A DNA stretch of 53,019 bases from Thermoplasmatota archaeon (GTDB lineage: Archaea; Thermoplasmatota; E2; UBA202; DSCA01), in contig JAWOAW010000015.1 of NCBI GenBank assembly GCA_046498345.1, positions 1 to 53,019 on the forward strand, written 5' to 3'. Under the pieces are notes generated by a model. That model did not search any database and was not told the DNA's origin. It saw only the letters and a list, made by a program, of their open reading frames with translations. This document shows positions 5,877 through 47,593 of this stretch, piece after piece. The position numbers and the translations under genes are program-made. The number at the start of each line of letters is the position of its first letter. Position 1 is the stretch's first letter.

Positions 5877-5956
5877 GGATGTCAGGCATACAACCCGAGA
5901 CGGCTTTTAAGCATTCGCCCCACCGGTACGAATGTGTACGAGGGGCGTCAAAATGT

Positions 5957-5982
5957 AATGTCGGGGGCGGGAAACGAACCCG
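5957..5982. repeat. Distal direct repeat: partial copy of the tRNA-Met 3' end (acceptor 3' strand plus T-arm)
   Basis: aatgtcgggggcgggaaacgaacccg versus 9136-9161 aatgtcgggggcgggatctgaacccg. The three mismatches are consecutive and fall in the T-loop. Confidence 0.8.
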
Positions 5983-5984
5983 TA

Positions 5985-5996
5985 TTTACCGGTAAA
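5985..5996. repeat. Perfect palindrome TTTACCGGTAAA just inside the left islet boundary
   Basis: Arms TTTAC/GTAAA are shared with the palindrome at 9087-9102. Confidence 0.6.
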
Positions 5997-6147
5997 ATTT
6001 TGAAACGACAGAGAATGCTCTTGGAATATTATTTGGGTGCAAATCACGGCAATTAGGAGGGTAAAGTGTGCCAAGGAAACCTATAACCTTGTGACTAATT
6101 AGCAAATTTTATAAACAAATTGTTGTTAAGAATATGAGGTGGGAGAG

Positions 6148-7083
6148 ATGAAGGAAAAATCCTTGTCTGTAAGCGGGTTGGTTATTGGCATACTATTTTT
6201 GTTTATCGGAACAAATGTTATTTCAGAAACCGAAAATGTAGTAATTGAAAGATGTACTACCTCAGGTAACAATCTTGTTGGAAATACTTTATATGTTGGA
6301 GGCACGGGACCAAATAATTATACGAAAATTCAGGAGGCGATAAATGATGCAAGCGATGATGATGCTGTTTTTGTGTATAGTGGCACATATTATGAGCAGT
6401 TAGTAGTAGACAAAACAGTAAATCTCATAGGCGAGAATAAGTACACCACAATTGTTGACGGTGGCGGCGAGAATGACACTGTGCGTATTGGTACTTCTGC
6501 CCATGGCGTAACAATATCAGGGTTCACAATACAAAACAGCGGAGATGTGGGGTATGGCGGACATATTGATGCTGGTATCGACATACTATCAAACAATAAT
6601 GTAATTTTTAATAATATCCTTATAAACCATCCACAAACAGGCATATATCTGTATGTTTCAAACGGAAATAATATTACAAATAATATAATCCAATACACTC
6701 GTTCTGGGATAGATTTCAACTCTGCTAGTGAAAATATCATTTCACATAATAATTTCTCTTACAATAGCGAGTGGGGTGTAGTGGTTCATGTTGATGGTAA
6801 AAGCGCCAACAACATCATTGCATATAACACATTCTTTGGAAACACGATGGGGTTGGCTCTGTATCATTCCAGCAACAGAATTTATCGGAATAACTTTATT
6901 AAAAATAGTAATTTTAATGCAGCTTCACATTTTAATCCATTTCGGATGACTCCCTCACGGAATAGTTGGGATGAAAATTTCTGGGATGATTGGAGGGGTT
7001 TCGGGCCAAAACATATCCCAGGATTCTTCGGATTTAATTTCGATCTCCATCCAGCGGAGGAGCCATATACGTTTGAGGTTTGA
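6148..7083 (+). CDS. Secreted/anchored right-handed parallel beta-helix repeat protein (PbH1/NosD-like)
   Basis: ATG at 6148 is preceded by GGTGGGAG, whereas the track starts at GTG 6139. The N-terminal anchor is LSVSGLVIGILFLFIGTNVI. Then comes LYVGGTGPNNYTKIQEAINDASDDDAVFVYSGTYYEQLVVDKTVNLIGE, followed by repeated NNxIxxN units. It is a paralogue of the N-terminal half of 27433..29088. The gene is AT-rich. Confidence 0.8.
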   Translation: MKEKSLSVSGLVIGILFLFIGTNVISETENVVIERCTTSGNNLVGNTLYVGGTGPNNYTKIQEAINDASDDDAVFVYSGTYYEQLVVDKTVNLIGENKYTTIVDGGGENDTVRIGTSAHGVTISGFTIQNSGDVGYGGHIDAGIDILSNNNVIFNNILINHPQTGIYLYVSNGNNITNNIIQYTRSGIDFNSASENIISHNNFSYNSEWGVVVHVDGKSANNIIAYNTFFGNTMGLALYHSSNRIYRNNFIKNSNFNAASHFNPFRMTPSRNSWDENFWDDWRGFGPKHIPGFFGFNFDLHPAEEPYTFEV

Positions 7084-7087
7084 TTGT

Positions 7088-8062
7088 ATGAAAAATAGTT
7101 TATTTAGAAAAACTCTCGTTATTGTTTTACTAGCTCTATTAACCGTAACCGGCTTATCAACTTTCATATCCTCAAACTATAAAATGGAGGCAGTAAATGT
7201 AACAATCGATACTGTTGAACAACCAAGAAATTCTACGATTGACGTAGCTTATCCGGATGATGGTATCTCACTCAAAACTGTTGGCGGTGACGGGAACACC
7301 AAATATTGGGCTGTGATTGCAACAGCAGGAGCTAACGCACACCAAGTAATATTAAGCACCAGAGATGCTGAACAGCTGTACGATATACTTGTTGCTCATA
7401 ATTGGGAAGAAAATAATATAAAATTATTAATTGAAGAAGAAGCTACAAGAGGAGCAGTAATGAATACGTTCCAGTGGCTGAATGAAAGTGGCGAAGATGC
7501 AGATGATGTCATTTTTTTCTTTTTTAGTTTTCATGGATTCCATATGGAAGATAAGCCACCCTTTGACGAGCCTGATGGCCAAGATGGTTTTCTAGCACCG
7601 TTTGGTTTCGATTTTGAAACCTGGGAAAATGCTATATTAGATGATGAGCTGGCAGCAGAATTTAATAAACTGAAATCAAAAAATATTTTTGCCATCATCC
7701 ATTCTTGTCATAGTGGCGAGTTTATTGATGGCACGAGCGACCTTTGTAACTCTGGTCGTGTTGTTTTAACTTCATGTGCCGCAGATGAAACATCCTGCCC
7801 CATCTATGCTAAAATGCAATGGCTTTATGCATATTATATAATAAAAGGTTTCAAAGGAAGTGCAGATAATAATAAAGACAACTGGGTATCGGCAGAAGAA
7901 GCGTTTAGCTATGCGAAATTACCAACTCAAATCCGATCCACAATATTCACCTTAATTAGTCCCCAAGTTCCCTTTACAACACAGCATCCCCAAATATATG
8001 ACGGATGGCCTACTGAGGAAAATCATGAGGATGACTTAAATATAATAGATATGACAAAGTAA
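7088..8062 (+). CDS. Membrane-anchored caspase-family (clan CD, C14 orthocaspase/metacaspase-like) cysteine peptidase
   Basis: ATG lies 4 nt after the previous stop. The anchor is MKNSLFRKTLVIVLLALLTVTGLSTFI. The His-Gly motif is VIFFFFSFHGFH and the Cys motif is IFAIIHSCHSGEF (compare D-x-C-H-S-G of metacaspases). The order and spacing of the dyad are canonical. Confidence 0.7.
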   Translation: MKNSLFRKTLVIVLLALLTVTGLSTFISSNYKMEAVNVTIDTVEQPRNSTIDVAYPDDGISLKTVGGDGNTKYWAVIATAGANAHQVILSTRDAEQLYDILVAHNWEENNIKLLIEEEATRGAVMNTFQWLNESGEDADDVIFFFFSFHGFHMEDKPPFDEPDGQDGFLAPFGFDFETWENAILDDELAAEFNKLKSKNIFAIIHSCHSGEFIDGTSDLCNSGRVVLTSCAADETSCPIYAKMQWLYAYYIIKGFKGSADNNKDNWVSAEEAFSYAKLPTQIRSTIFTLISPQVPFTTQHPQIYDGWPTEENHEDDLNIIDMTK

Positions 8063-8155
8063 GAATTAAATTTTTTCATTTAGGGGATACTTCTGTTGCG
8101 TTAGGTTGGCGTGAATTGAAAGGGGGTGATGCTTGCGGGTCGTGAATGAATATAC

Positions 8156-8872
8156 CTAGTACTGTATCACGTAGTTGTCGCCATAACCAGCCCAATCCTT
8201 AGCTATCTCACCGCCGAGGAAAAAGTTCAGCGGGTCGAACCGGAATCGCAGGGCCGTCCAAGCATCCGTCTCGGACAAGACATCGCCAGGCTGCGGATTA
8301 CCAATTACCTGTTTATCGATTTTGAAGGTTACGATATTGTTTTCCAGGTCAAATGATCCTTCCACTTCCTCTCTAGGGCTTGGAGATTCCCCAGCACTGA
8401 AAGCTATATGCTCTCCGTTGGTATTCACATGGACACCGACACTCCACGCGGTATCGTGATATGTCCAGTGCATGGCGTAAATACATTTCTCCTTGATAAA
8501 TATCAAATCGCTGACCTCAACTGCAGTAAACAGGTAGCCAGGTTCAGATTCATCTTCATAAAACCATGCCGATACCACATCAATAGCATCCAGTGACTCT
8601 TTTCCAAATATCCCATAGACCACAAGGAAATTCAACGGTTTAGGCCTCGAAATCCAGACGTCCCCAGCATCATCCACTATCTCAGGGTCATCACCATCTA
8701 TTGGTACAGAGACATCTGTTTCCCCAGGTATATCCGCCTCTTGGATTGTATTATCTGCTTCGTCAGAGAGCAACCCCTGCATCAAAGGCCCAGCACCCAA
8801 AGAGGGAATCGTTGCAACGAGCAGGAACACAATTCCAAGTACAAACACGTTGTGCCTCACCCCTTTTTTCAT
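8156..8872 (-). CDS. Secreted protein of unknown function (islet cargo)
   Basis: Signal peptide MKKGVRHNVFVLGIVFLLVATIPSLGAG, then an acidic linker and a beta-rich body. I recognise no motif. Confidence 0.6.
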   Translation of the reverse strand: MKKGVRHNVFVLGIVFLLVATIPSLGAGPLMQGLLSDEADNTIQEADIPGETDVSVPIDGDDPEIVDDAGDVWISRPKPLNFLVVYGIFGKESLDAIDVVSAWFYEDESEPGYLFTAVEVSDLIFIKEKCIYAMHWTYHDTAWSVGVHVNTNGEHIAFSAGESPSPREEVEGSFDLENNIVTFKIDKQVIGNPQPGDVLSETDAWTALRFRFDPLNFFLGGEIAKDWAGYGDNYVIQY

Positions 8873-9086
8873 ATTAATTTACCTCCACATTTAAAACAAA
8901 AGCACATATATAAATCTTGCTAATATAACACACGGTATTAGTTTTATCACAATCATCCCACCTGATATATCCATGTGTTACGGTGCTACTTTATCGAGAT
9001 TCAAACTATTTAACGCAAAAAGTAAGCGGGATAATACCACTAACTTCCACATTCAGGCACATAGGACTCAGACTGCGTTTACTCTC

Positions 9087-9102
9087 TTTTTACTAGTAAA
9101 AA
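9087..9102. repeat. Perfect 16-nt palindrome TTTTTACTAGTAAAAA inside the right islet boundary
   Basis: Same TTTAC-NN-GTAAA arms as 5985-5996. It lies 35 nt from the tRNA 3' end. Confidence 0.6.
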
Positions 9103-9137
9103 TCTATCTGGCCTTGCTCGTTCTCTCGAAGGAAAAA

Positions 9138-9238
9138 TGTCGGGGGCGGGATCTGAACCCGCGACCTCCTGATGTCCCAGCGAACCCTTGAGCTGTGCTT
9201 ATGAGTCAGGCGCTCTAACCAGGCTGAGCCACCCCGAC
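9138..9238 (-). tRNA. tRNA-Met (or Ile2) anticodon CAU with a 26-nt canonical (37/38) intron
   Basis: Reverse strand: GUCGGGG-UG-GCUC-AGCCUGGUUA-GAGC-G-CCUGA-CUCAUA[AGCACAGCUCAAGGGUUCGCUGGGAC]A-UCAGG-AGGUC-GCGGG-UUCAGAU-CCCGC-CCCCGAC-A. All stems pair. Total length 101 nt, 75 nt after splicing. Confidence 0.9.
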
Positions 9239-9268
9239 AGATAGGTGCCGGCCGAGCCGGCATGCAGG

Positions 9269-9394
9269 TCAGCGTTTTTCGACGGTGTAGCCGCAGTGGG
9301 TGCACTTCCACTTTTCGTAGACATCGTGCTCGAAGGAGAACGGCACCAGTGAGCCATCCTCGCATTCTGGGCACGGCGGAAAGATGTTTGCTAT
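9269..9394 (-). CDS. Possible 41-aa zinc-ribbon mini-protein lacking a canonical start codon
   Basis: The frame reads (I)ANIFPPCPECEDGSLVPFSFEHDVYEKWKCTHCGYTVEKR*. CPxC...CxxC is a textbook zinc ribbon. No ATG/GTG/TTG precedes the first Cys pair after the upstream in-frame TGA (9404-9406). GGTGAT (9403-9398) precedes an ATA codon at 9394. Confidence 0.3.
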   Translation of the reverse strand: MANIFPPCPECEDGSLVPFSFEHDVYEKWKCTHCGYTVEKR

Positions 9395-12884: not shown

Positions 12885-12920
12885 TTTTGATGCACAGATG
12901 CTTTAAAATAGTTGCCGGCC

Positions 12921-12948
12921 ACCCGCACCCCTTCATTTCCACTGGAAC
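12921..12948 (+). promoter_or_regulatory. Conserved 28-nt motif, copy 1 (ACCCGCACCCCTTCATTTCCACTGGAAC)
   Basis: Lies in the divergent intergenic region between the sulfotransferase (start 12884) and GT4 (start 13017). Contains the palindrome TTCCACTGGAA (12937-12947). Confidence 0.6.
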
Positions 12949-13016
12949 TGCCGCAGAGATAGGCAGCGAGCTAACCTTAATAAGCGGAGTGGCATTCATC
13001 TGTAGCGAGGGACAGG

Positions 13017-15963: not shown

Positions 15964-15987
15964 ATCCTGCCTATATAAAAAAACGTT

Positions 15988-16015
15988 ACCCACACCCCCT
16001 CATTTCCACTGGAAC
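15988..16015 (+). promoter_or_regulatory. Conserved 28-nt motif, copy 2 (ACCCACACCCCCTCATTTCCACTGGAAC)
   Basis: Lies between the divergent starts 15963 (-) and 16043 (+). It is immediately followed by the TATA-like TTTAATATAT. Confidence 0.6.
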
Positions 16016-16042
16016 TTTAATATATCGGCAGGGTTACATGAT

Positions 16043-17677
16043 ATGCTGCTGACGCTGCTGGACGGCTACGTCGACGAGCCCTCCTGCCTGGGTGTGCCTC
16101 CCTACATCTCTCCCTACGTCAGATACGCCGCCGGCGCCATCGTCGACGCCGGACACCGCTGCCAGTACCGGACCGTCGACCAATGGCGGCAGGGTGCCTC
16201 CCTCGACGGCAGCGCTCTGCTGATCATAACCGGGGCGCTGGTCCCCGGCCGATACCTGCGCGGCATGCCCATGTCGTACAATGAGTTTCACCGTATCACG
16301 GCATCGTTCAACGGACCCGTCATACTCGGCGGGTCGTCAGCGAAGCATGGCATCGGCCACGGCGGTGGACGGGCACCCCGCCGGGTACACGACCTCGTTG
16401 ACTACACCGCCGAAAAAGATGCAGACGCATTCATCTACGACCTTCTACATGACACCCTGCGGCAGCGCCATCGTACAAAAAAAGAATGGCAGCGCTGGGC
16501 TCTGGCCGGGGCAGACGTCGTGACACGCCATCCCGACTTCCCCGACACCTTGCTGGCGGAAATCGAGACATACCGGGGCTGCCCGCGGTATCTCACCGGG
16601 GGATGCAGCTTCTGCATGGAGCCCCTCCACGGTCGACCGGAAACCCGGCCGGCAGACGACATCGTGGAAGAAACCGTCCGCCTGTACGAGCTCGGCGTCC
16701 GGCATTTCCGACTGGGCTGCCAGTCATGTTTTTACTCCTACAGCTCCCGCGACATCGGCACCAGGGAAACGCCGCGGCCCAACGTGGCTGCCATACGCCG
16801 GCTGCTCACAGGGATACGAACCCTGGCCCCGAACATCGAGGTGTTGCACATAGACAACGCCAACCCGGCGGTCGTCGCCACCTATCCCGATGAAGCAGCG
16901 GAGATAACCCGGCTCATAACCCGTCTCTGCACGGCGGGAAACACGGTAGCGCTGGGCATGGAAACAGCCGACGAAAGGGTCCGGACGGCCAACCACATCA
17001 ACGCAACGCCTGGGCAAACCCTGGCGGCCATACGTCTCATCAACGACCTGGGAGCCCGGCGAGGCGAGAACGGTATGCCCCGCCTGCTGCCCGGCATAAA
17101 CTTTTTGTACGGGCTGCTCGGTGAAAGCAGCGAAACCTTTCAAAAAAACAGGGTGTTTCTGCGCACGGTGATGCAGGAGCAGCTGCTGCTCCGGCGCATC
17201 AACATCCGGCAGGTGGTTCCCGTCCGCAGCCAACAGGCCGGGACAGACACTGCGGCGCTGCAGGCGTTCAAACAGGAGGTAAACGAGTCGGTCAACCGGC
17301 CGATGCTCCGGCGTATAACCCCCCGGGGTACCGTCCTGAAGGACGTATACCTGGAGATACACCGGGGAAAAAACACGTTTGGCCGACAGATCGGCTCCTA
17401 TCCCTTGCTGGTCTGCCTGCCATACCGGGAGGAGACCGGGCATTTCGTCGACGTGAAGATAACCGGGCATGGCTACCGGAGCATCACCGGTATCGCATAT
17501 CCGCTGGACATCAACACGGCCTCGCTCGATGCGCTGACAGCGCTGCCCGAGGTAGGCGAAAAACGGGCGGCTCGCATCATCACCGGCCGGCCGTATGCAG
17601 ACATGTCCGAGCTCGCAGCCGTCATGGACCCCGGGTTTGACACGGCGGCGCTTTCAGGCTGGTGCCGTCTCGGGTAG
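16043..17677 (+). CDS. Radical SAM superfamily enzyme with C-terminal helix-hairpin-helix (COG1031-like)
   Basis: MLLTLLDGYVDEPSCLGVPPYISPY...; Cys cluster YRGCPRYLTGGCSFC; C-terminal HhH LDINTASLDALTALPEVGEKRAARII. The real start is ATG 16043, not the track start 15890. Confidence 0.75.
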   Translation: MLLTLLDGYVDEPSCLGVPPYISPYVRYAAGAIVDAGHRCQYRTVDQWRQGASLDGSALLIITGALVPGRYLRGMPMSYNEFHRITASFNGPVILGGSSAKHGIGHGGGRAPRRVHDLVDYTAEKDADAFIYDLLHDTLRQRHRTKKEWQRWALAGADVVTRHPDFPDTLLAEIETYRGCPRYLTGGCSFCMEPLHGRPETRPADDIVEETVRLYELGVRHFRLGCQSCFYSYSSRDIGTRETPRPNVAAIRRLLTGIRTLAPNIEVLHIDNANPAVVATYPDEAAEITRLITRLCTAGNTVALGMETADERVRTANHINATPGQTLAAIRLINDLGARRGENGMPRLLPGINFLYGLLGESSETFQKNRVFLRTVMQEQLLLRRINIRQVVPVRSQQAGTDTAALQAFKQEVNESVNRPMLRRITPRGTVLKDVYLEIHRGKNTFGRQIGSYPLLVCLPYREETGHFVDVKITGHGYRSITGIAYPLDINTASLDALTALPEVGEKRAARIITGRPYADMSELAAVMDPGFDTAALSGWCRLG

Positions 17678-18992: not shown

Positions 18993-19220
18993 CTACAAAG
19001 CATCCCCGTCTTTAAATGCTTCCGTCCGCACCGCGTCGAGCAGTCCGTGGGCGTAGTTGATGCATCCAAATGCGGTGAACAGGTCCCGTCGGGCCAGATA
19101 GTATTTTGCGTCGTCGTAATACCGCCGGGCCATGTCCACGATGTCCTGCCGGTCAACCGCGTCCACGTGCCGCTCGAACAGGGTGATGTCTTTTTCAATG
19201 CGTTCTCTCTGATCCATCAT
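18993..19220 (-). CDS. Small conserved archaeal protein (DUF357-like, tentative)
   Basis: MMDQRERIEKDITLFERHVD...ARRYYDDAKYYLARRDLFTAFGCINYAHGLLDA. The start overlaps the hflX stop (ATGATGA). Confidence 0.5.
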   Translation of the reverse strand: MMDQRERIEKDITLFERHVDAVDRQDIVDMARRYYDDAKYYLARRDLFTAFGCINYAHGLLDAVRTEAFKDGDAL

Positions 19221-20494
19221 ATCATTCTCACCCGGGCACCGCGCTGCTGGCAGCGTCCCACTATTTTGTCTTTGACCCGCTGGCTGCAGGTCACGCGGAC
19301 GAAGCTGGTGCCATCGTTTCGCACCGTGCACACCCGCGCCTGCTGGTTGAAGATAAACGACATGTCGTCCTCGTCGATGCCGTCGGGGAACACGATCTCC
19401 ATCCGGACCCTGTCGGGCAGCGCCGCGTAGATGGCGTCCACCAGGCCATCTATGTTTTCCCCGGTTTCCGCTGACAGGTACAGGCAGGGCCTGGCGCCGG
19501 TGACCTCGCGTATGCCCTCCAGCTTTTCCCGTCGCTCCGCATCGGACAGGCAGTCGGCCTTGTTGAGCCCTACGACGATGTCGGGATGGGTTTCCATCTC
19601 CATGATCTCCCGCAGTGACACGGACGCCTTCTCCCGGATGGTCTCCGTGTCCTCGCTGGCGTCTATCAATAGCACGATGACGTCGGACAGGGCTATCTCC
19701 TCCAGCGTGGGATGGAAGGCGTCCACCAGCCAGTGGGGGAGGTCCCGGATAAAGCCGACCGTATCAGTGATGAGAATGGGCATCGCATGTGTTCCCTGGT
19801 CGTGTTTCAGGCGCCGGGTGGTCGTGGACAGCGTTGAGAACAGGCGTTCTTCGACCGCCACCTCCTCGTCGGATAGCCGGTTGAGCAGGCTGCTTTTGCC
19901 CGCGTTGGTGTACCCGGCGATGGAGACCAGGTAGAAACCCTTGTCCCGGCGGTTTTTCCGGTGGGACTCCCGCACCTTTTCTGTTTTTTCCAGCTCCTCC
20001 TTGATGTTTTTTATCTGTTTTTTGATCATCTCGTAGTAGTTGGCCACCTCGTACTGGCCGCCGGCCATGAACCCGGGGTGTTCGCCGGCCCTGGCGCGGT
20101 GGATGAGCTCCCGTACGTATGGCCGTTCGTAGCGGAGCGACGCCAGGCGGACCTGCAGCTTGGCTGTTTTCCGCTGGGCGCGGTCGGCGAAAATGTTGAG
20201 GATGAGTCGGATGCGGTCGTAGACGGTGACGTTGAGCTCTTTTTCCATGGTGTACCACTGCGACGGCCGCAGCCGCTGGTCGACCACGGCGCAGTCGATG
20301 TCGTGCGCATCGATGTAATCCGCCACCTCGGCTATTTTTCCGGCTCCGATGTAGGACGCCGGGTCCGGGGTGTTCCGCTGCTGGATGAAGACGTGCTGCA
20401 CGTGGTAGTCCAGCGCCTGGACCAGGTGGCGCAGCTCCTGGTTGTCCCGCTGCAGGGATATGATGACCGCGTTTTTTTCGTCCATCTCGTTCAT
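19217..20494 (-). CDS. hflX: GTPase HflX
   Basis: HflX N-domain and coiled linker, then SIAGYTNAGKSSLLNRL, DTVGFI and NKADC. Confidence 0.9.
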   Translation of the reverse strand: MNEMDEKNAVIISLQRDNQELRHLVQALDYHVQHVFIQQRNTPDPASYIGAGKIAEVADYIDAHDIDCAVVDQRLRPSQWYTMEKELNVTVYDRIRLILNIFADRAQRKTAKLQVRLASLRYERPYVRELIHRARAGEHPGFMAGGQYEVANYYEMIKKQIKNIKEELEKTEKVRESHRKNRRDKGFYLVSIAGYTNAGKSSLLNRLSDEEVAVEERLFSTLSTTTRRLKHDQGTHAMPILITDTVGFIRDLPHWLVDAFHPTLEEIALSDVIVLLIDASEDTETIREKASVSLREIMEMETHPDIVVGLNKADCLSDAERREKLEGIREVTGARPCLYLSAETGENIDGLVDAIYAALPDRVRMEIVFPDGIDEDDMSFIFNQQARVCTVRNDGTSFVRVTCSQRVKDKIVGRCQQRGARVRMI

Positions 20495-20519
20495 TTATGT
20501 GGGCGGGGATAAAAAAGCT

Positions 20520-20547
20520 TTTCCAGTGGAAACAAGGGGGTGTGGGT
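20520..20547 (-). promoter_or_regulatory. Conserved 28-nt motif, copy 3 (ACCCACACCCCCTTGTTTCCACTGGAAA on the - strand)
   Basis: Starts on the last base of the polB stop codon. It is followed by the TATA-like TTTTTTAT, and the hflX ATG lies about 25 nt downstream. Confidence 0.6.
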
Positions 20548-22025
20548 CATGCGCTGAAGTCCATCAGGCTGGCCCGCCCGCTCCCCAGGGACACGACGGG
20601 CACCTTGGCCGGGTCGGGCATGAAGTTCATCATCCGCTGGTAGTCCGTCTGCGACTGCCAGGTTGAGGCGTTGATGAGCTGCACGCCCCGGTAGGAGTCA
20701 ATCGCCGTCGTATGCACGTGCCCGGTGACGAAGACATCCGGGATGCGGTCGATGACCATGTAGTCATGCTGCTCCGGGGCCAGCGGGGTTATCTCCCCGT
20801 AGATGGGGGCCAGATGTCGCCGCATCAGCATGTGTTTCATGATTTCGGTGGGCTGGTTCTGGTTGATGCCGATGCGCGTGGAAAAATCAAACAGCGACTG
20901 CCCGTGATAGAGCAGCACGTCAAGCCCGTCCAGCCGGGTGTAGGCCGGGTTTCCCACGAACACCACGTTGAGATCGGAAAAAATCCGCCGGATCTCGCCC
21001 TCGAGGGCAGGCTGAGGAAGCGCCTGCCGTACCGCGTCATGGTTTCCCGGCTGCAGCACGATGGTCACGTCGCGGGGCACCGCCGACAGTTCCTCGGCGA
21101 GCGCCCGGTACTGCTCGTAGATGTCCTCGATGTACAGGTCCTGCTCCTGGGTGGGGTAGATGCCGATGCCCTCGACGGCGTCCCCGGGGATAACGAGATA
21201 TTTTATGTGCCGGGCGACCTCCTGCTGGCGGGTGGTGCCGACCTCGCCGTTCATCCATCGCATAAACTTTTTCCATTCTTTTTCCAGGAACGTCTTGCTG
21301 CCGATGTGGATGTCGGAGGCGAAGGCCACGTATCCCTCGCCGTTGCACTGCTGCCTGGTCTGATGTACCGGTATGTCTGGGCGGAGCAGCTGCTGGGCGA
21401 TGAGAAGCCCGTTTCGCCCGCCGCTGCCGATGACACCGACGACCTCGTCCTCCACCAGCGTGTCGGCCATGCCGGCGTCCTCCTCCGGGATGTAGACGGT
21501 GGCGCCGCCGCTTTCGTCTTCGATGTCCATCAGGACGTGTCCCTTCGAGCTCCTGGTGATGCTGTCCACGATGCCAATGACCGCTATGCTGCCATCCCTG
21601 TCCCGTGCTTTTTTGACCGGGATGACATGTTTCATCTCCTGGCGCTTCCGGAGCAGCCGGTGGAGCTGGGCGTAGCGGTCGCAGAACAGCTTGGTGAAAT
21701 CGGCGAGGGTTCCCTCGCAGCAGCTGTTCCCGGTGACATCCTTGAGGACCTCCAGCTGCCCGGGCTCCTCCCGGGGCGATATCGGTGGCGTGTCTGCGGA
21801 CGGGGTCCGCTCATCCTGCTCGTGTCGCCCGGTCTGGAAGACGTGTTTGACGTCGTCCAGCACGATGTTGAGCGGTTTTCCGTCCACGCAGTCGAGCACC
21901 CGCCGGGCGTTGCTCATGCAGTCTCCCTGCCGCACGAGATAGTCAACTGCCTCGGACTGGATGAAGACCTGCTGTTTCTGAAAGTATTCGATTACTTTCC
22001 GTCGATCGTCCATTTTAGCCGGCAT
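20547..22025 (-). CDS. polB: DNA polymerase II (PolD) small subunit DP1
   Basis: OB-fold region plus calcineurin-like phosphodiesterase motifs: ASDIHIGS, VIPGDAVEG, LQPGNHD, VTGHVH. The start may be 22013 (MDDRRKV). Confidence 0.9.
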   Translation of the reverse strand: MPAKMDDRRKVIEYFQKQQVFIQSEAVDYLVRQGDCMSNARRVLDCVDGKPLNIVLDDVKHVFQTGRHEQDERTPSADTPPISPREEPGQLEVLKDVTGNSCCEGTLADFTKLFCDRYAQLHRLLRKRQEMKHVIPVKKARDRDGSIAVIGIVDSITRSSKGHVLMDIEDESGGATVYIPEEDAGMADTLVEDEVVGVIGSGGRNGLLIAQQLLRPDIPVHQTRQQCNGEGYVAFASDIHIGSKTFLEKEWKKFMRWMNGEVGTTRQQEVARHIKYLVIPGDAVEGIGIYPTQEQDLYIEDIYEQYRALAEELSAVPRDVTIVLQPGNHDAVRQALPQPALEGEIRRIFSDLNVVFVGNPAYTRLDGLDVLLYHGQSLFDFSTRIGINQNQPTEIMKHMLMRRHLAPIYGEITPLAPEQHDYMVIDRIPDVFVTGHVHTTAIDSYRGVQLINASTWQSQTDYQRMMNFMPDPAKVPVVSLGSGRASLMDFSA

Positions 22026-22336
22026 GGACGCGTCCGCGGTGGGCGTGAAGCACCGGGCAGCGACGGCCCAGCATTTTTCTCAATCCCGCGATCCCCTGAG
22101 CACCATTAGTCTTCGGCCGGGCTGCTCCCTTCCGGGCCTGACCCTCTATCCGAAACCAAGATGGACAGCCGACCCTCCGGCCGGCTGCGGCCATCACCTC
22201 TGGTCCCAGGGGACGGGATTTCATCGTCCAACGCTGGATCGCTGCCTGGGCTCCACGCCGCCGTTGGACTTCGACCCCGACTGAAGGCGATTTCCGGTGA
22301 CAGGAGACGCCTAACTTCCCGGTCTAGTCCATACCT
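22020..22336 (-). ncRNA. Archaeal signal recognition particle RNA (7S RNA), about 317 nt; ends approximate
   Basis: The reverse strand contains the helix-8 hallmark GAGGGUCAGGCCCGGAAGGGAGCAGCCCGGCC. The 5' GUAUGGAC (22334-22327) pairs with the 3' GUCCAUGC (22029-22022), closing helix 1. CCAGGCAGCGA/UCGCUGCCCGG form part of helix 5. The ORFs called here are spurious. Confidence 0.85.
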
Positions 22337-45670: not shown

Positions 45671-47472
45671 CGAGGCCGCATCGTGATGTCCCGGTTGGAG
45701 GCGATGGCGTTCATGATGGCCTTCCCCTGGGTGCTGCGCCGCCTGACCTTGATGGTGCCCTCCTGTGACAGGGTGCCGGCCAGCAGGAGCTCGTCGCCGC
45801 CCATGATGTCGACCTCTTTGCCGGCGTGGCCCGGCCCTGCATCGAGAACAACGTTGTTTTGCTGCTTGATGACGTTGGGCCGTATCTCCGACTTCTTGAG
45901 CGGCTTCACGTTGAGCTTGATGCCCGCCTCGTCCTCGATGCTGGCGATGGTCTTGCCGCCCTTGCCGATGATGTGGGGAATGTTTTCCTCTTCCACGTAG
46001 ACGTTGGCGGAGTTGCCCGACGTTATCTCGCAGTCGACGACGCCGTCTATCCAGCGGCTGACGATGTGGCGCAGCTGCCGTTCAGCCAGCTTGCCGGAGC
46101 CCGTGGTTTTCTCCTCGCGCTCCTGGATGGCCATGACCACGACCTGCTCGCCGTAGGTGTATATCTCGTAGAGGGCCTTCTGCGTGTTGAAGTCCTTGAC
46201 CATGATGACCGGGCGGGCCAGGTCGGCCTCCTCCATGCCGGCGGGCAGCTTCACGGTGAACTCCATCTCCAGGATCTGCTCTATCTGGCCGCCGTTGATA
46301 TGGATGATGGTGTCCGTCACCTGGGGGATCATGCCCAGCTCCACGCGGCCGATGAGCCGCTGGATGGCGTCGATGGCCCGGTTTGCATGGGTGACCCCGA
46401 TGAGCCCCATGCCGGCCAGGCGCATGTCCGCGAAAATTCGGAAATCCTCGCCCTTCCGCACCTCGTCGAACACCACGAAGTCAGGCCGGACGAGCAGCAG
46501 GATGTCCGAGGTGAGCTCCATGTCGTCCTCCAGCGGTCCATACTGGGTTATCTCCTCGTTGACCTGCAGGTCCCGCGGGCTCTCCATGGTTTTCACCACG
46601 GCGCCCTGCTCATGCAGATATTCGGCCACGGCCTGCGCAAACGTGGACTTGCCCGAGCCCGGGGGGCCCGACACGAGCACGCCGCGCCGGAAGTTCGACA
46701 GCCGGCTCTTGGTCTCCTCGTCAAGGTCGTAGTCGTCAAGGTCGAGCTTGACAACGGGCCGGGTGGCCGTGATCTCGAAGCGGTCGGAAAACCGCGGGCG
46801 GGCGATGACCACCCGCATGGCCTCCAGCTGCACCACGGTGACACCCTTCCGCTCGATCTCCAGGAAGCTGTTCTTCTCCCGCTTGGCCGCCTCGATGATA
46901 TGCCGGCTCATGGTCTCCATGTCCCGCTCAGACAGGCTGCGATGCCCCGCGGGCTCGAAGGTGAAGTTGCCGGGCACCCCTCGTTTGACGTAGGGGCGGC
47001 AGCCCTCCCGCAGGTGGACGCTCATGACGTCATCCTCGAAATATTTCTGGAAGCGCAGCGACTCGATTTCCTGCTCAGCCGAAACAGATGCAGGGCGCAT
47101 GTAATGCGTCTTGAGTCCCTTCGCCTCGGCGACGTGTGCCTGCAATCGGTCGGAGGTGCAGAGCGTCGCGCCCTCCTGCTCCGATACCTTTCTGATGATG
47201 GCGTCGATTTCGCCGACGGGACGGGTCTCCTCCATGGTGGGCCGTTCGCCGGTGAAACGCAGGTCGATGTCTCCTTTCCGGTGGAATCCCTGCAGGCGAA
47301 CGATTTCGTCGAGGCCGCTGAGGCCGCTTTCAAACCCTTCGTTGGCCTGGTATTCAAGCTCGGCGACCACGGCCTCGGGGATGATGATCTCTGCTCCTGC
47401 GAACTCGCCGTCTTCGATGAGACTGGTGACCCGGCCATCCACGATGACCGATGTATCCGGTACGATTTTCAT
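45667..47472 (-). CDS. PIN domain / PilT-like ATPase / KH domain protein (COG1855 type)
   Basis: N-terminal PIN MKIVPDTSVIVDG, Walker A VSGPPGSGKSTFAQ, C-terminal KH IIGKGGKTIASIEDEAGIKL. ATGA overlap with the Nudix gene. Confidence 0.85.
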   Translation of the reverse strand: MKIVPDTSVIVDGRVTSLIEDGEFAGAEIIIPEAVVAELEYQANEGFESGLSGLDEIVRLQGFHRKGDIDLRFTGERPTMEETRPVGEIDAIIRKVSEQEGATLCTSDRLQAHVAEAKGLKTHYMRPASVSAEQEIESLRFQKYFEDDVMSVHLREGCRPYVKRGVPGNFTFEPAGHRSLSERDMETMSRHIIEAAKREKNSFLEIERKGVTVVQLEAMRVVIARPRFSDRFEITATRPVVKLDLDDYDLDEETKSRLSNFRRGVLVSGPPGSGKSTFAQAVAEYLHEQGAVVKTMESPRDLQVNEEITQYGPLEDDMELTSDILLLVRPDFVVFDEVRKGEDFRIFADMRLAGMGLIGVTHANRAIDAIQRLIGRVELGMIPQVTDTIIHINGGQIEQILEMEFTVKLPAGMEEADLARPVIMVKDFNTQKALYEIYTYGEQVVVMAIQEREEKTTGSGKLAERQLRHIVSRWIDGVVDCEITSGNSANVYVEEENIPHIIGKGGKTIASIEDEAGIKLNVKPLKKSEIRPNVIKQQNNVVLDAGPGHAGKEVDIMGGDELLLAGTLSQEGTIKVRRRSTQGKAIMNAIASNRDITMRPR

Positions 47473-47519: not shown

Positions 47520-47593
47520 TGGGCCCGGCCGGATTTGAACCGACGACCATCTGGTTATGAGCCAGACGCTCCACCAGCCTAAGCTACGGGCCC
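47520..47593 (-). tRNA. tRNA with anticodon CAU (elongator Met or Ile2), no intron
   Basis: GGGCCCG-UA-GCUU-AGGCUGGUG-GAGC-G-UCUGG-CUCAUAA-CCAGA-UGGUC-GUCGG-UUCAAAU-CCGGC-CGGGCCC-A; 74 nt. Confidence 0.9.

Follow-up and report, generated by a model that had tools for sequence, protein, structure and literature searches.

Origin recognition boxes (ORBs), the sites at which the initiator protein Orc1/Cdc6 binds, are a standard landmark for archaeal replication origins. In co-crystal structures from 2007, the winged helix of the initiator reportedly sits on the dyad of the box. Despite this internal inverted repeat, an ORB is bound asymmetrically by one Orc1/Cdc6 monomer, as seen in co-crystal structures, and MCM is loaded between opposing ORBs (review PMC6742236); the G-string beside the dyad is read by the AAA+ domain of Orc1/Cdc6 (PMC3936714). 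Here, we describe three copies of a 27-nt motif in a 53-kb (53,019-nt) stretch of DNA from a Thermoplasmatota archaeon (assembly GCA_046498345.1, contig JAWOAW010000015.1), which as a whole is referred to below as the window. The three elements are, with high probability, canonical ORBs, that is, Orc1/Cdc6 sites of an oriC1-type locus without linkage to orc1.

Loci and boxes of this kind are described from several archaeal groups. The minimal oriC1 of H. hispanica requires two inverted ORBs with AT-rich DNA between them, and the cis-linked cdc6 gene is dispensable for its autonomously replicating sequence (ARS) activity (PMC3936714). The haloarchaeal oriC1 lies in the context GTP-binding protein gene (gbp)-cdc6-sec-polA (review PMC4010727), and in H. 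volcanii dp1, the gene for the small subunit of DNA polymerase D (PolD), is found near oriC1 (PMC1868953). Thermococcales have a second ORB cluster, located within dp1 and bound by Cdc6/Orc1 in vivo (Matsunaga et al. 2007, PMC1904270). In Methanomassiliicoccales, the predicted ORBs include 'lone' ones away from orc1, located downstream of ftsZ and of nifH/E (Borrel et al. 2014, PMC4153887). Non-origin Orc1 binding sites, together with altered transcript profiles, are known from Sulfolobus (PMC3607249), and an ORB cluster that titrates Cdc6 has been proposed (PMC4010727, PMC3936714).

Sequence and identity of the motif

A first-pass annotation, made from the letters of the window alone, had reported three intergenic copies of an element with a perfect palindrome and an asymmetric C-rich box. 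Their coordinates and sequences hold up:

12921-12947, + strand: ORB1, ACCCGCACCCCTTCATTTCCACTGGAA, in a spacer of 132 bp from which the sulfotransferase and GT4 genes diverge
15988-16014, + strand: ORB2, ACCCACACCCCCTCATTTCCACTGGAA, filling the centre of the 88 bp that separate the CrtC/AttH-like gene from the gene for a radical S-adenosylmethionine (SAM) protein with a helix-hairpin-helix (HhH)
20521-20547, - strand: ORB3, ACCCACACCCCCTTGTTTCCACTGGAA, taking up half of the 52 bp that lie between the stop codon of dp1 and the start codon of hflX

The motif, ACCCRCACCCCYTYRTTTCCACTGGAA, occurs exactly three times in the window, and when up to three mismatches are allowed in this degenerate 27-mer, the same three sites alone are returned; dinucleotide shuffles contain no match (0 in 100), and the chance expectation is zero. 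The three full-length boxes that carry a G-string lie within 7.6 kb, with none elsewhere in the window. When weaker ORB-like copies or mini-ORB clusters were sought in the window at a threshold of 13 matches out of 16 to CCCCNNNNTTTCCACTGGAA, nothing but the three copies came up. The 11-bp palindrome TTCCACTGGAA gives seven strand-hits with up to one mismatch, against 0.6 expected. Aligned with 80-nt flanks, the copies form a sharply bounded block of about 27 nt outside which the flanks do not align, and this block is strongly asymmetric, its C-rich half being present on one side alone. The motif is real, highly non-random and, judged by its conservation, functional. ORB1 and ORB2 have the same orientation and ORB3 is inverted, so that the dyad ends of ORB2 and ORB3 point towards each other over a distance of 4.5 kb, which holds four genes (the radical-SAM gene, traB, a hypothetical gene and hflX).

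The opposite-strand readings of the copies are GTTCCAGTGGAAATGAAGGGGTGCGGGT, GTTCCAGTGGAAATGAGGGGGTGTGGGT and TTTCCAGTGGAAACAAGGGGGTGTGGGT. On the G-rich strand, the anatomy of the box is that of an ORB: the mini-ORB dyad GTTCCAGTGGAAAT, a 2-3-nt spacer, a GGGGG G-string and a TGTGGGT extended G-run. The mini-ORB core TTCCA(G/C)TGGAAA is perfect in all three copies and identical to published ORB cores, and GGGGG or AGGGG follows 3-4 nt after GGAAA(T/C), with an extra GTG(T/C)GGGT. In the first-pass annotation, the mini-ORB dyad had appeared as a perfect palindrome and the G-string as an asymmetric C-rich box. The published consensus for Methanomassiliicoccales is GTTCCAGTGGAAATGG-AGGGGTA and that for archaea in general CTTCCAGTGGAAACGAAAGGGGT (PMC4153887, Table 2); the reverse complements of the three copies (GTTCCAGTGGAAATGA-GGGGGTG...) match the former at 19-20 of 23 positions, with the same distance from dyad to G-string, and fit the latter as well. 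They also fit the euryarchaeal consensus GTTCCAGTGGAAAC-AAA----GGGGG (PMC1868953). ORB1 of P. furiosus, ...GAGTTTCATTTCCACTGGAAC, is bound by Cdc6/Orc1 in gel shifts (PMC1904270), and copy 2 is identical to it over 16 contiguous nucleotides (TCATTTCCACTGGAAC). The motif is therefore an element already described and not a new one, and the supposed undescribed regulatory motif is to be re-annotated as an ORB in an uncultured Thermoplasmata lineage; binding of Orc1/Cdc6 at all three sites is to be expected with considerable confidence. Only the arrangement of the boxes is mildly unusual: they are single, they stand in promoter spacers, two of them are fused to core promoters, and neither an initiator gene nor an unwinding element is linked to them.

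The same motif family is linked to the initiator gene across archaea. The relaxed pattern CACCCCNNNNTTTCCACTGGAA, run against prokaryotic genomes with a single genome for each species, matched at least 119 loci, and a second scan of metagenome contigs with a longer pattern gave at least 120. Genes for orc1/cdc6 were detected in these loci by tblastn with two Orc1/Cdc6 proteins, taken from open reading frames that adjoin the motif in two of them. Matches to CACCCCNNNNTTTCCACTGGAA are nearly all archaeal and come from many phyla, including Thermoplasmata, Methanomicrobiales, Methanocellales, Bathyarchaeia, Nitrososphaeria, Thermoprotei, Asgard lineages, Woesearchaeota and Hadarchaeota. Among the loci listed, orc1/cdc6 is encoded in 55 of the 119 from genomes, nearly always no more than about 560 bp from the motif, and in 44 of the 120 from metagenomes, mostly within 560 bp; by a rough estimate, a random 8-kb stretch holds such a gene in about 1% of cases. 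Some contigs of metagenome-assembled genomes labelled as bacterial (L026, L049, L054 and L080, also L012, L029 and L060) carry an archaeal orc1/cdc6 beside an ORB. Their labels are Lachnospiraceae, Eggerthellaceae, Anaerovoracaceae, Bacteroides, Omnitrophota and Dormiibacterota, and they are probably mis-binned archaeal contigs, of Methanomassiliicoccales type or other.

A few minor features accompany the motif. The sole near-match to the dyad beyond the three copies, TTCCACCGGAA at 47276-47286, lacks a G-string, lies about 235 bp from tRNA-Met (47520-47593) and is probably a chance match. An RNA element was considered and rejected: an Rfam scan of the whole window finds an SRP RNA and two tRNAs only, with no match at the three sites, and a 5-1-5 palindrome is unable to form a hairpin. 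Directly after ORB1, a small inverted repeat (12948-12966) is no better than in shuffles (z = -1.15); its counterpart in the relative L001 (around 2197-2236) has a 9-bp GC stem (z = -3.3).

Promoters, neighbouring genes and conservation in relatives

Two of the boxes almost touch a TATA-like box. The candidate core promoters around the ORBs are:

16016-16025, + strand: TATA-like box TTTAATATAT of the radical-SAM/HhH gene, 1 nt after ORB2; start codon 16043
20509-20516, - strand: TATA-like box TTTTTTAT of hflX, 4 nt after ORB3; start codon 20494
15971-15983, - strand: A/T-rich TATA-like box of the CrtC/AttH-like gene, CTATATAAAAAAA on the + strand; start codon 15954
12902-12909, - strand: TATA-like box of the sulfotransferase gene, TTTAAAAT on the + strand; start codon 12884
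12977-12984, + strand: TATA-like box TTAATAAG of the GT4 gene, 29 nt after ORB1; start codon 13017

From the end of the motif to the start codon the distance is 28 nt for the radical-SAM gene (16043) and 26 nt for hflX (20494), and the distances from TATA box to start codon, 22-27 nt, suggest that both mRNAs are probably leaderless. The boxes and start codons after copies 2 and 3 are spaced as the first-pass annotation had described, and copies 1 and 2 do lie between divergent genes. ORB2 is placed between two divergent core promoters, the box of the CrtC/AttH-like gene lying 4 nt from its C-rich end and having an A-run that is conserved in orthologous spacers; at ORB1, the box of the sulfotransferase gene is 11 nt from the C-rich end.

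The genes next to ORB2 and ORB3 are:

16043-17677, + strand: radical-SAM protein with a C-terminal HhH (PF04055 and PF12836; no specific NCBIfam family), first gene downstream of ORB2
19217-20494, - strand: hflX GTPase (NCBIfam TIGR03156, 289 bits), first gene downstream of ORB3
20547-22025, - strand: dp1, DNA polymerase D (Pol II) small subunit (NCBIfam NF003118, 528 bits)

The gene calls for the sulfotransferase, GT4, CrtC/AttH-like, radical-SAM plus HhH, TraB, HflX and DP1 proteins are confirmed with Pfam and NCBIfam. The stop codon of dp1 overlaps the first base of ORB3 (20547), as had been noticed at the outset, when the gene was called polB; it encodes the small subunit of a family-D polymerase and not a family-B enzyme. 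Directly upstream of dp1 lies an archaeal signal recognition particle (SRP) RNA at 22022-22334 (- strand; Rfam, 193 bits), whose 3' end overlaps the dp1 start codon (22023-22025), and co-transcription or a shared promoter is possible.

Syntenic relatives were found by tblastn of the window proteins against the listed loci, and their genomic GC content ranges from 34 to 63%. They are, with their protein identity to the window:

L170 and L213: about 90%
L103: about 80%
L001 and L086 (one contig): about 78%
L122, L177, L178 and L189: about 60%
L019: about 57%
L108, L201, L198/L144 and L045: about 50%

The ORB2 block is invariant in nine orthologous spacers, down to about 50% protein identity, with the TATA columns conserved, and ORB3 is invariant in six. 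Both boxes, together with their TATA boxes, form invariant islands within otherwise diverged spacers and are conserved throughout this Thermoplasmata lineage, as represented by the relatives among the listed loci. ORB1 is kept in L213, L103 and L001, whose flanking proteins are about 80-90% identical, and missing from the equivalent spacer in L019 and L178 (about 57-60%), which marks it as a younger copy. The earlier claim of a conserved protein-binding site near the TATA boxes, beyond what a basal promoter needs, gains support from this footprinting of orthologous promoters, which points to a site kept at orthologous positions.

Gene order differs among the relatives. In L108 (631-6755), in L122 and in the window it is dp1, ORB and hflX, followed further on by the radical-SAM gene with its own ORB in the opposite direction, whereas in L045 (6302-8000) dp1 and an ORB lead directly into the radical-SAM gene; this is the outcome expected of an inversion between two inverted ORB-TATA modules. 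The two modules of L108 are identical over about 45 nt, and such modules seem to allow inversion of the intervening 4.5-kb segment. In the metagenome OMKS01, which represents one relative, ORB2 and the TATA box of the radical-SAM gene stand on separate contig ends (L178 1-110 and L122 14030-14234), each with an inverted copy of TTGACTTTGTCA(G/C)ATT after it. The arrangement resembles an insertion sequence (IS) or miniature inverted-repeat transposable element (MITE) inserted exactly at the ORB/TATA junction.

The first-pass annotation had attributed the motif to a dedicated dimeric transcription factor with a small regulon, and had named winged helix-turn-helix proteins encoded in the window as candidate regulators. 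The 11-bp palindromic core beside TATA boxes and the conservation of the sites in orthologous promoters would fit an operator of this kind, serving a lineage-specific regulon unrelated to replication, but such a factor is very unlikely. The 22-nt pattern spans archaeal phyla and is tightly linked to orc1/cdc6, the motif matches experimentally bound ORBs, and instead of symmetric half-sites in a single lineage we find a pan-archaeal element with an asymmetric C-rich half, which is the G-string that the AAA+ domain reads. Since ORBs are bound by single monomers (PMC6742236), a dimer does not follow from the palindrome; the initiator itself is the ligand to be expected, and the named candidates are not needed to explain the motif. 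A MITE-like mobile repeat, the alternative offered alongside, has in its favour that the sequence is short, repeated and intergenic. With only three copies of 27 nt each in 53 kb, sharp edges, no terminal inverted repeats or target duplications, a pan-archaeal distribution and orthologous placement of the copies where the flanking proteins of relatives share about 50% identity, it is effectively refuted by the orthologous conservation and has next to no probability.

Comparison with described origins

The window copies share the TTCCAGTGGAAA dyad and the G-string with the oriC1-type ORBs of S. solfataricus, P. abyssi/furiosus, H. volcanii and H. hispanica, and they also carry an extra G-run like the 'extended G-string' of haloarchaeal oriC1 ORBs. 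Like oriC1-type origins, the locus has dp1 and a GTPase gene as neighbours and contains one opposed pair. In contrast to these origins, it has no adjacent orc1/cdc6 and no DNA unwinding element (DUE) of high AT content between its ORBs, which are single, stand 3-4.5 kb apart in spacers of 52-132 bp and, in the case of ORB2 and ORB3, abut TATA boxes. The closest consensus is that of Methanomassiliicoccales (PMC4153887), which is sometimes extended by GGGGGT and has the same one-base-shorter spacer. There, too, ORBs flank a gene at kilobase distance, but the main ones flank orc1/cdc6.1, whereas those of the window flank other genes and sit on promoters. The dp1 cluster of Thermococcales likewise ties an ORB to the PolD small-subunit gene, kilobases from other ORBs; it lies inside dp1, however, and here a single ORB starts from the dp1 stop codon. 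With the DnaA boxes in bacterial promoters, with datA and with Orc1-2, a DNA-damage regulator in Sulfolobales, the window may share the logic of an initiator or its paralogue that acts as a transcription factor or is titrated, although the proteins and motifs are unrelated or different. The sites of Orc1-2 in Sulfolobales are reportedly short promoter motifs and not full ORBs.

The gene neighbourhood is conserved: hflX and dp1, that is, a gene for a GTP-binding protein and that for the PolD small subunit, flank ORB3. The order ORB-orc1-dp1 is found in many lineages, including Bathyarchaeia, Nitrososphaeria and Methanomicrobiales, and the order hflX-ORB-orc1 in Methanomassiliicoccus-type loci, where about 280 bp of partly AT-rich DNA separate the ORB from hflX; an hflX homologue neighbours ORB and orc1 in L024 and L183. 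The window looks like an oriC1-type neighbourhood that lost orc1 and the unwinding region, and, ORBs being what they are, it very probably holds an oriC1-type locus or its remains. A simple deletion of orc1 from between ORB and dp1 was rejected as the route, because elsewhere the order is ORB-orc1-dp1 and here the ORB is downstream of dp1. Two loci from other lineages, L097 (6690-6860) and L236 (1330-1520), have a strict ORB just upstream of hflX and no orc1 in the locus; their hflX is only 36-38% identical, and in L097 the ORB lies a few nucleotides upstream of a possible ATG start without an intervening TATA box.

Where strict ORBs form canonical close pairs in the listed loci, they are 124-586 bp apart, with the dyad ends inward in 11 of 12, and in all but one pair the enclosed DNA has a higher AT content than the locus around it. 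At these origins, AT-rich DNA often starts 2-3 nt past the dyad end, which is the position of the TATA box in the window. In Methanomassiliicoccales loci, the pairs with inward dyads have orc1 itself between them and a separation of 1.5-1.7 kb; one of these ORBs sits between convergent gene ends and so cannot be a promoter element there. Two metagenome loci with paired ORBs, L143 and L223, were considered as a canonical origin of the same lineage and rejected, as they belong to other, AT-rich organisms.

Several results weigh against the account of the locus given here. In the 53-kb window, tblastn with two Orc1/Cdc6 proteins gives a best E-value of only 0.11, and no orc1/cdc6 is encoded in the listed loci of lineage relatives; such an adjacent gene is usual at origins, if not obligatory. 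The window has no AT-rich stretch of DUE size (at least 40 nt) near ORB2 or ORB3 and no mini-ORB cluster, and no single intergenic region contains two or more inverted ORBs around an AT-rich element, the arrangement that the H. hispanica oriC1 needs; the opposing ORB2 and ORB3 are instead 4.5 kb apart with four genes between them. GC skew over the 53 kb has no interpretable switch. ORB1 does not abut a TATA box and is younger and lineage-restricted, and the apparent insertion in L178 and L122 implies that an ORB is not strictly required beside the radical-SAM promoter. In five lineage genomes every strict match, among the matches listed, falls at this locus, but the notion that the three boxes are the only strict ORBs of these genomes is, within the listed matches to the strict pattern, suggestive only.

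Promoter control and origin function

We propose that an initiator encoded elsewhere in the genome would occupy all three sites, one Orc1/Cdc6 monomer binding each ORB in a fixed direction, with the winged helix on the dyad and the AAA+ domain on the G-string. The transcription factor B (TFB) recognition element (BRE) has the consensus RNWAAW, and the purine-rich GGAA(A) of the ORB resembles it. With the dyad ends of ORB2 and ORB3 1-4 nt from the TATA boxes, their GGAA(A/C) end would come to lie at the BRE position that TFB reads. A dyad end placed there (...CTGGAAC or ...GGAAAAG) means that bound Orc1/Cdc6 should exclude TFB. With TFB excluded, hflX and the radical-SAM/HhH gene would be repressed, and the divergent CrtC-like gene probably as well, and their expression would be tied to initiator occupancy. 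ORB2 and ORB3, opposed with dyads inward as at origins, may still direct MCM loading.

An effect of the initiator on the adjacent promoters appears reasonably likely. The spacing between ORB and TATA box (1-4 nt) and the orientation are fixed over deep divergence, and the module persists after the apparent inversion in L045. The transcriptional role proposed in the first-pass annotation is plausible to this extent, although it would act through the initiator and not through a dedicated factor. Whether replication still initiates at this locus is, in our view, an evenly balanced question. Promoter control and origin function are both possible and do not exclude each other, and titration of the initiator as at datA is a minor third possibility.

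How far the locus has moved from an origin to a set of operators can be weighed from both ends. The boxes might be pure origin elements of an active chromosomal origin, with MCM loaded between ORB2 and ORB3 or beside single ORBs, with melting at the short A/T boxes that adjoin the dyad ends and with the closeness to promoters as a by-product of compact spacers. This would agree with the neighbours hflX and dp1, which are those of orc1-linked ORBs elsewhere, with the concentration of three full-length G-string ORBs in 7.6 kb and none in the rest of the window, with the confinement of the listed strict matches of five lineage genomes to this locus, and with the dyad-inward placement of ORB2 and ORB3, which recalls canonical pairs whose AT-rich region begins directly after the dyad end. 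Precedents are the opposing ORBs of Methanomassiliicoccales, also 1.5-1.7 kb apart around a gene, the second Cdc6-bound cluster inside the dp1 of Thermococcales and the dispensable cis linkage of cdc6 for ARS activity in H. hispanica. But there is no AT-rich tract of DUE size, the spacers of just 52-88 bp are filled by ORB and core promoters, 4.5 kb lies between the opposing sites and the GC skew of the window is uninformative, and we regard a purely origin-bound role as possible but on the whole doubtful. Orc1-2 is reported to act as a global regulator (PMC6061795), a precedent for the opposite case, in which the origin would have moved away with orc1, leaving the ORBs as non-origin operators through which the initiator acts on hflX, the radical-SAM/HhH gene and their neighbours, perhaps also as a datA-like sink. 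That account, plausible though not quite probable, would explain why the 1-4-nt spacing to the TATA box and the orientation are kept over about 50% protein divergence, why the module is intact after the apparent inversion in L045, why DUE and orc1 are not found in the window and why a new box, ORB1, arose in a spacer that holds promoters of glycan-modifying genes; it has precedents in the non-origin Orc1 sites with transcript changes (PMC3607249) and the proposed Cdc6-titrating cluster (PMC4010727, PMC3936714). Set against it are the full-length G-string ORBs and their opposing orientation, which resemble origin architecture, the lack of a second lineage origin among the matches listed in either scan, and the case of one relative, where an insertion apparently separates ORB2 from the TATA box, which argues against a strict promoter requirement.

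Whichever role prevails, the reading of the three elements as Orc1/Cdc6 sites makes the locus a test case in two respects: how much of origin architecture (DUE, paired ORBs and a linked initiator gene) is really required, and whether the main initiator also regulates at the promoter level. More tentatively, an ancestral oriC1 might have been remodelled into 'ORB-promoter modules', in which the dyad end of the ORB serves as the BRE of a leaderless gene and neither a DUE nor a linked orc1 is present. If so, replication might be licensed at core promoters, with the TATA box and transcription-bubble region replacing the unwinding element, or Orc1/Cdc6 might be a promoter-occluding regulator of hflX and of a DNA-binding radical-SAM enzyme, the expression of both being coupled to the replication cycle.

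The sole large AT-rich region of the window, at 5.9-9.3 kb, is unrelated to the ORBs. This low-GC island (5900-9300; GC 0.37-0.44, compared with about 0.62 elsewhere) ends beside a 101-nt tRNA match at 9138-9238 (- strand), which was found by Rfam and not by ARAGORN and therefore probably contains an intron; the island looks like a foreign element integrated at a tRNA gene.

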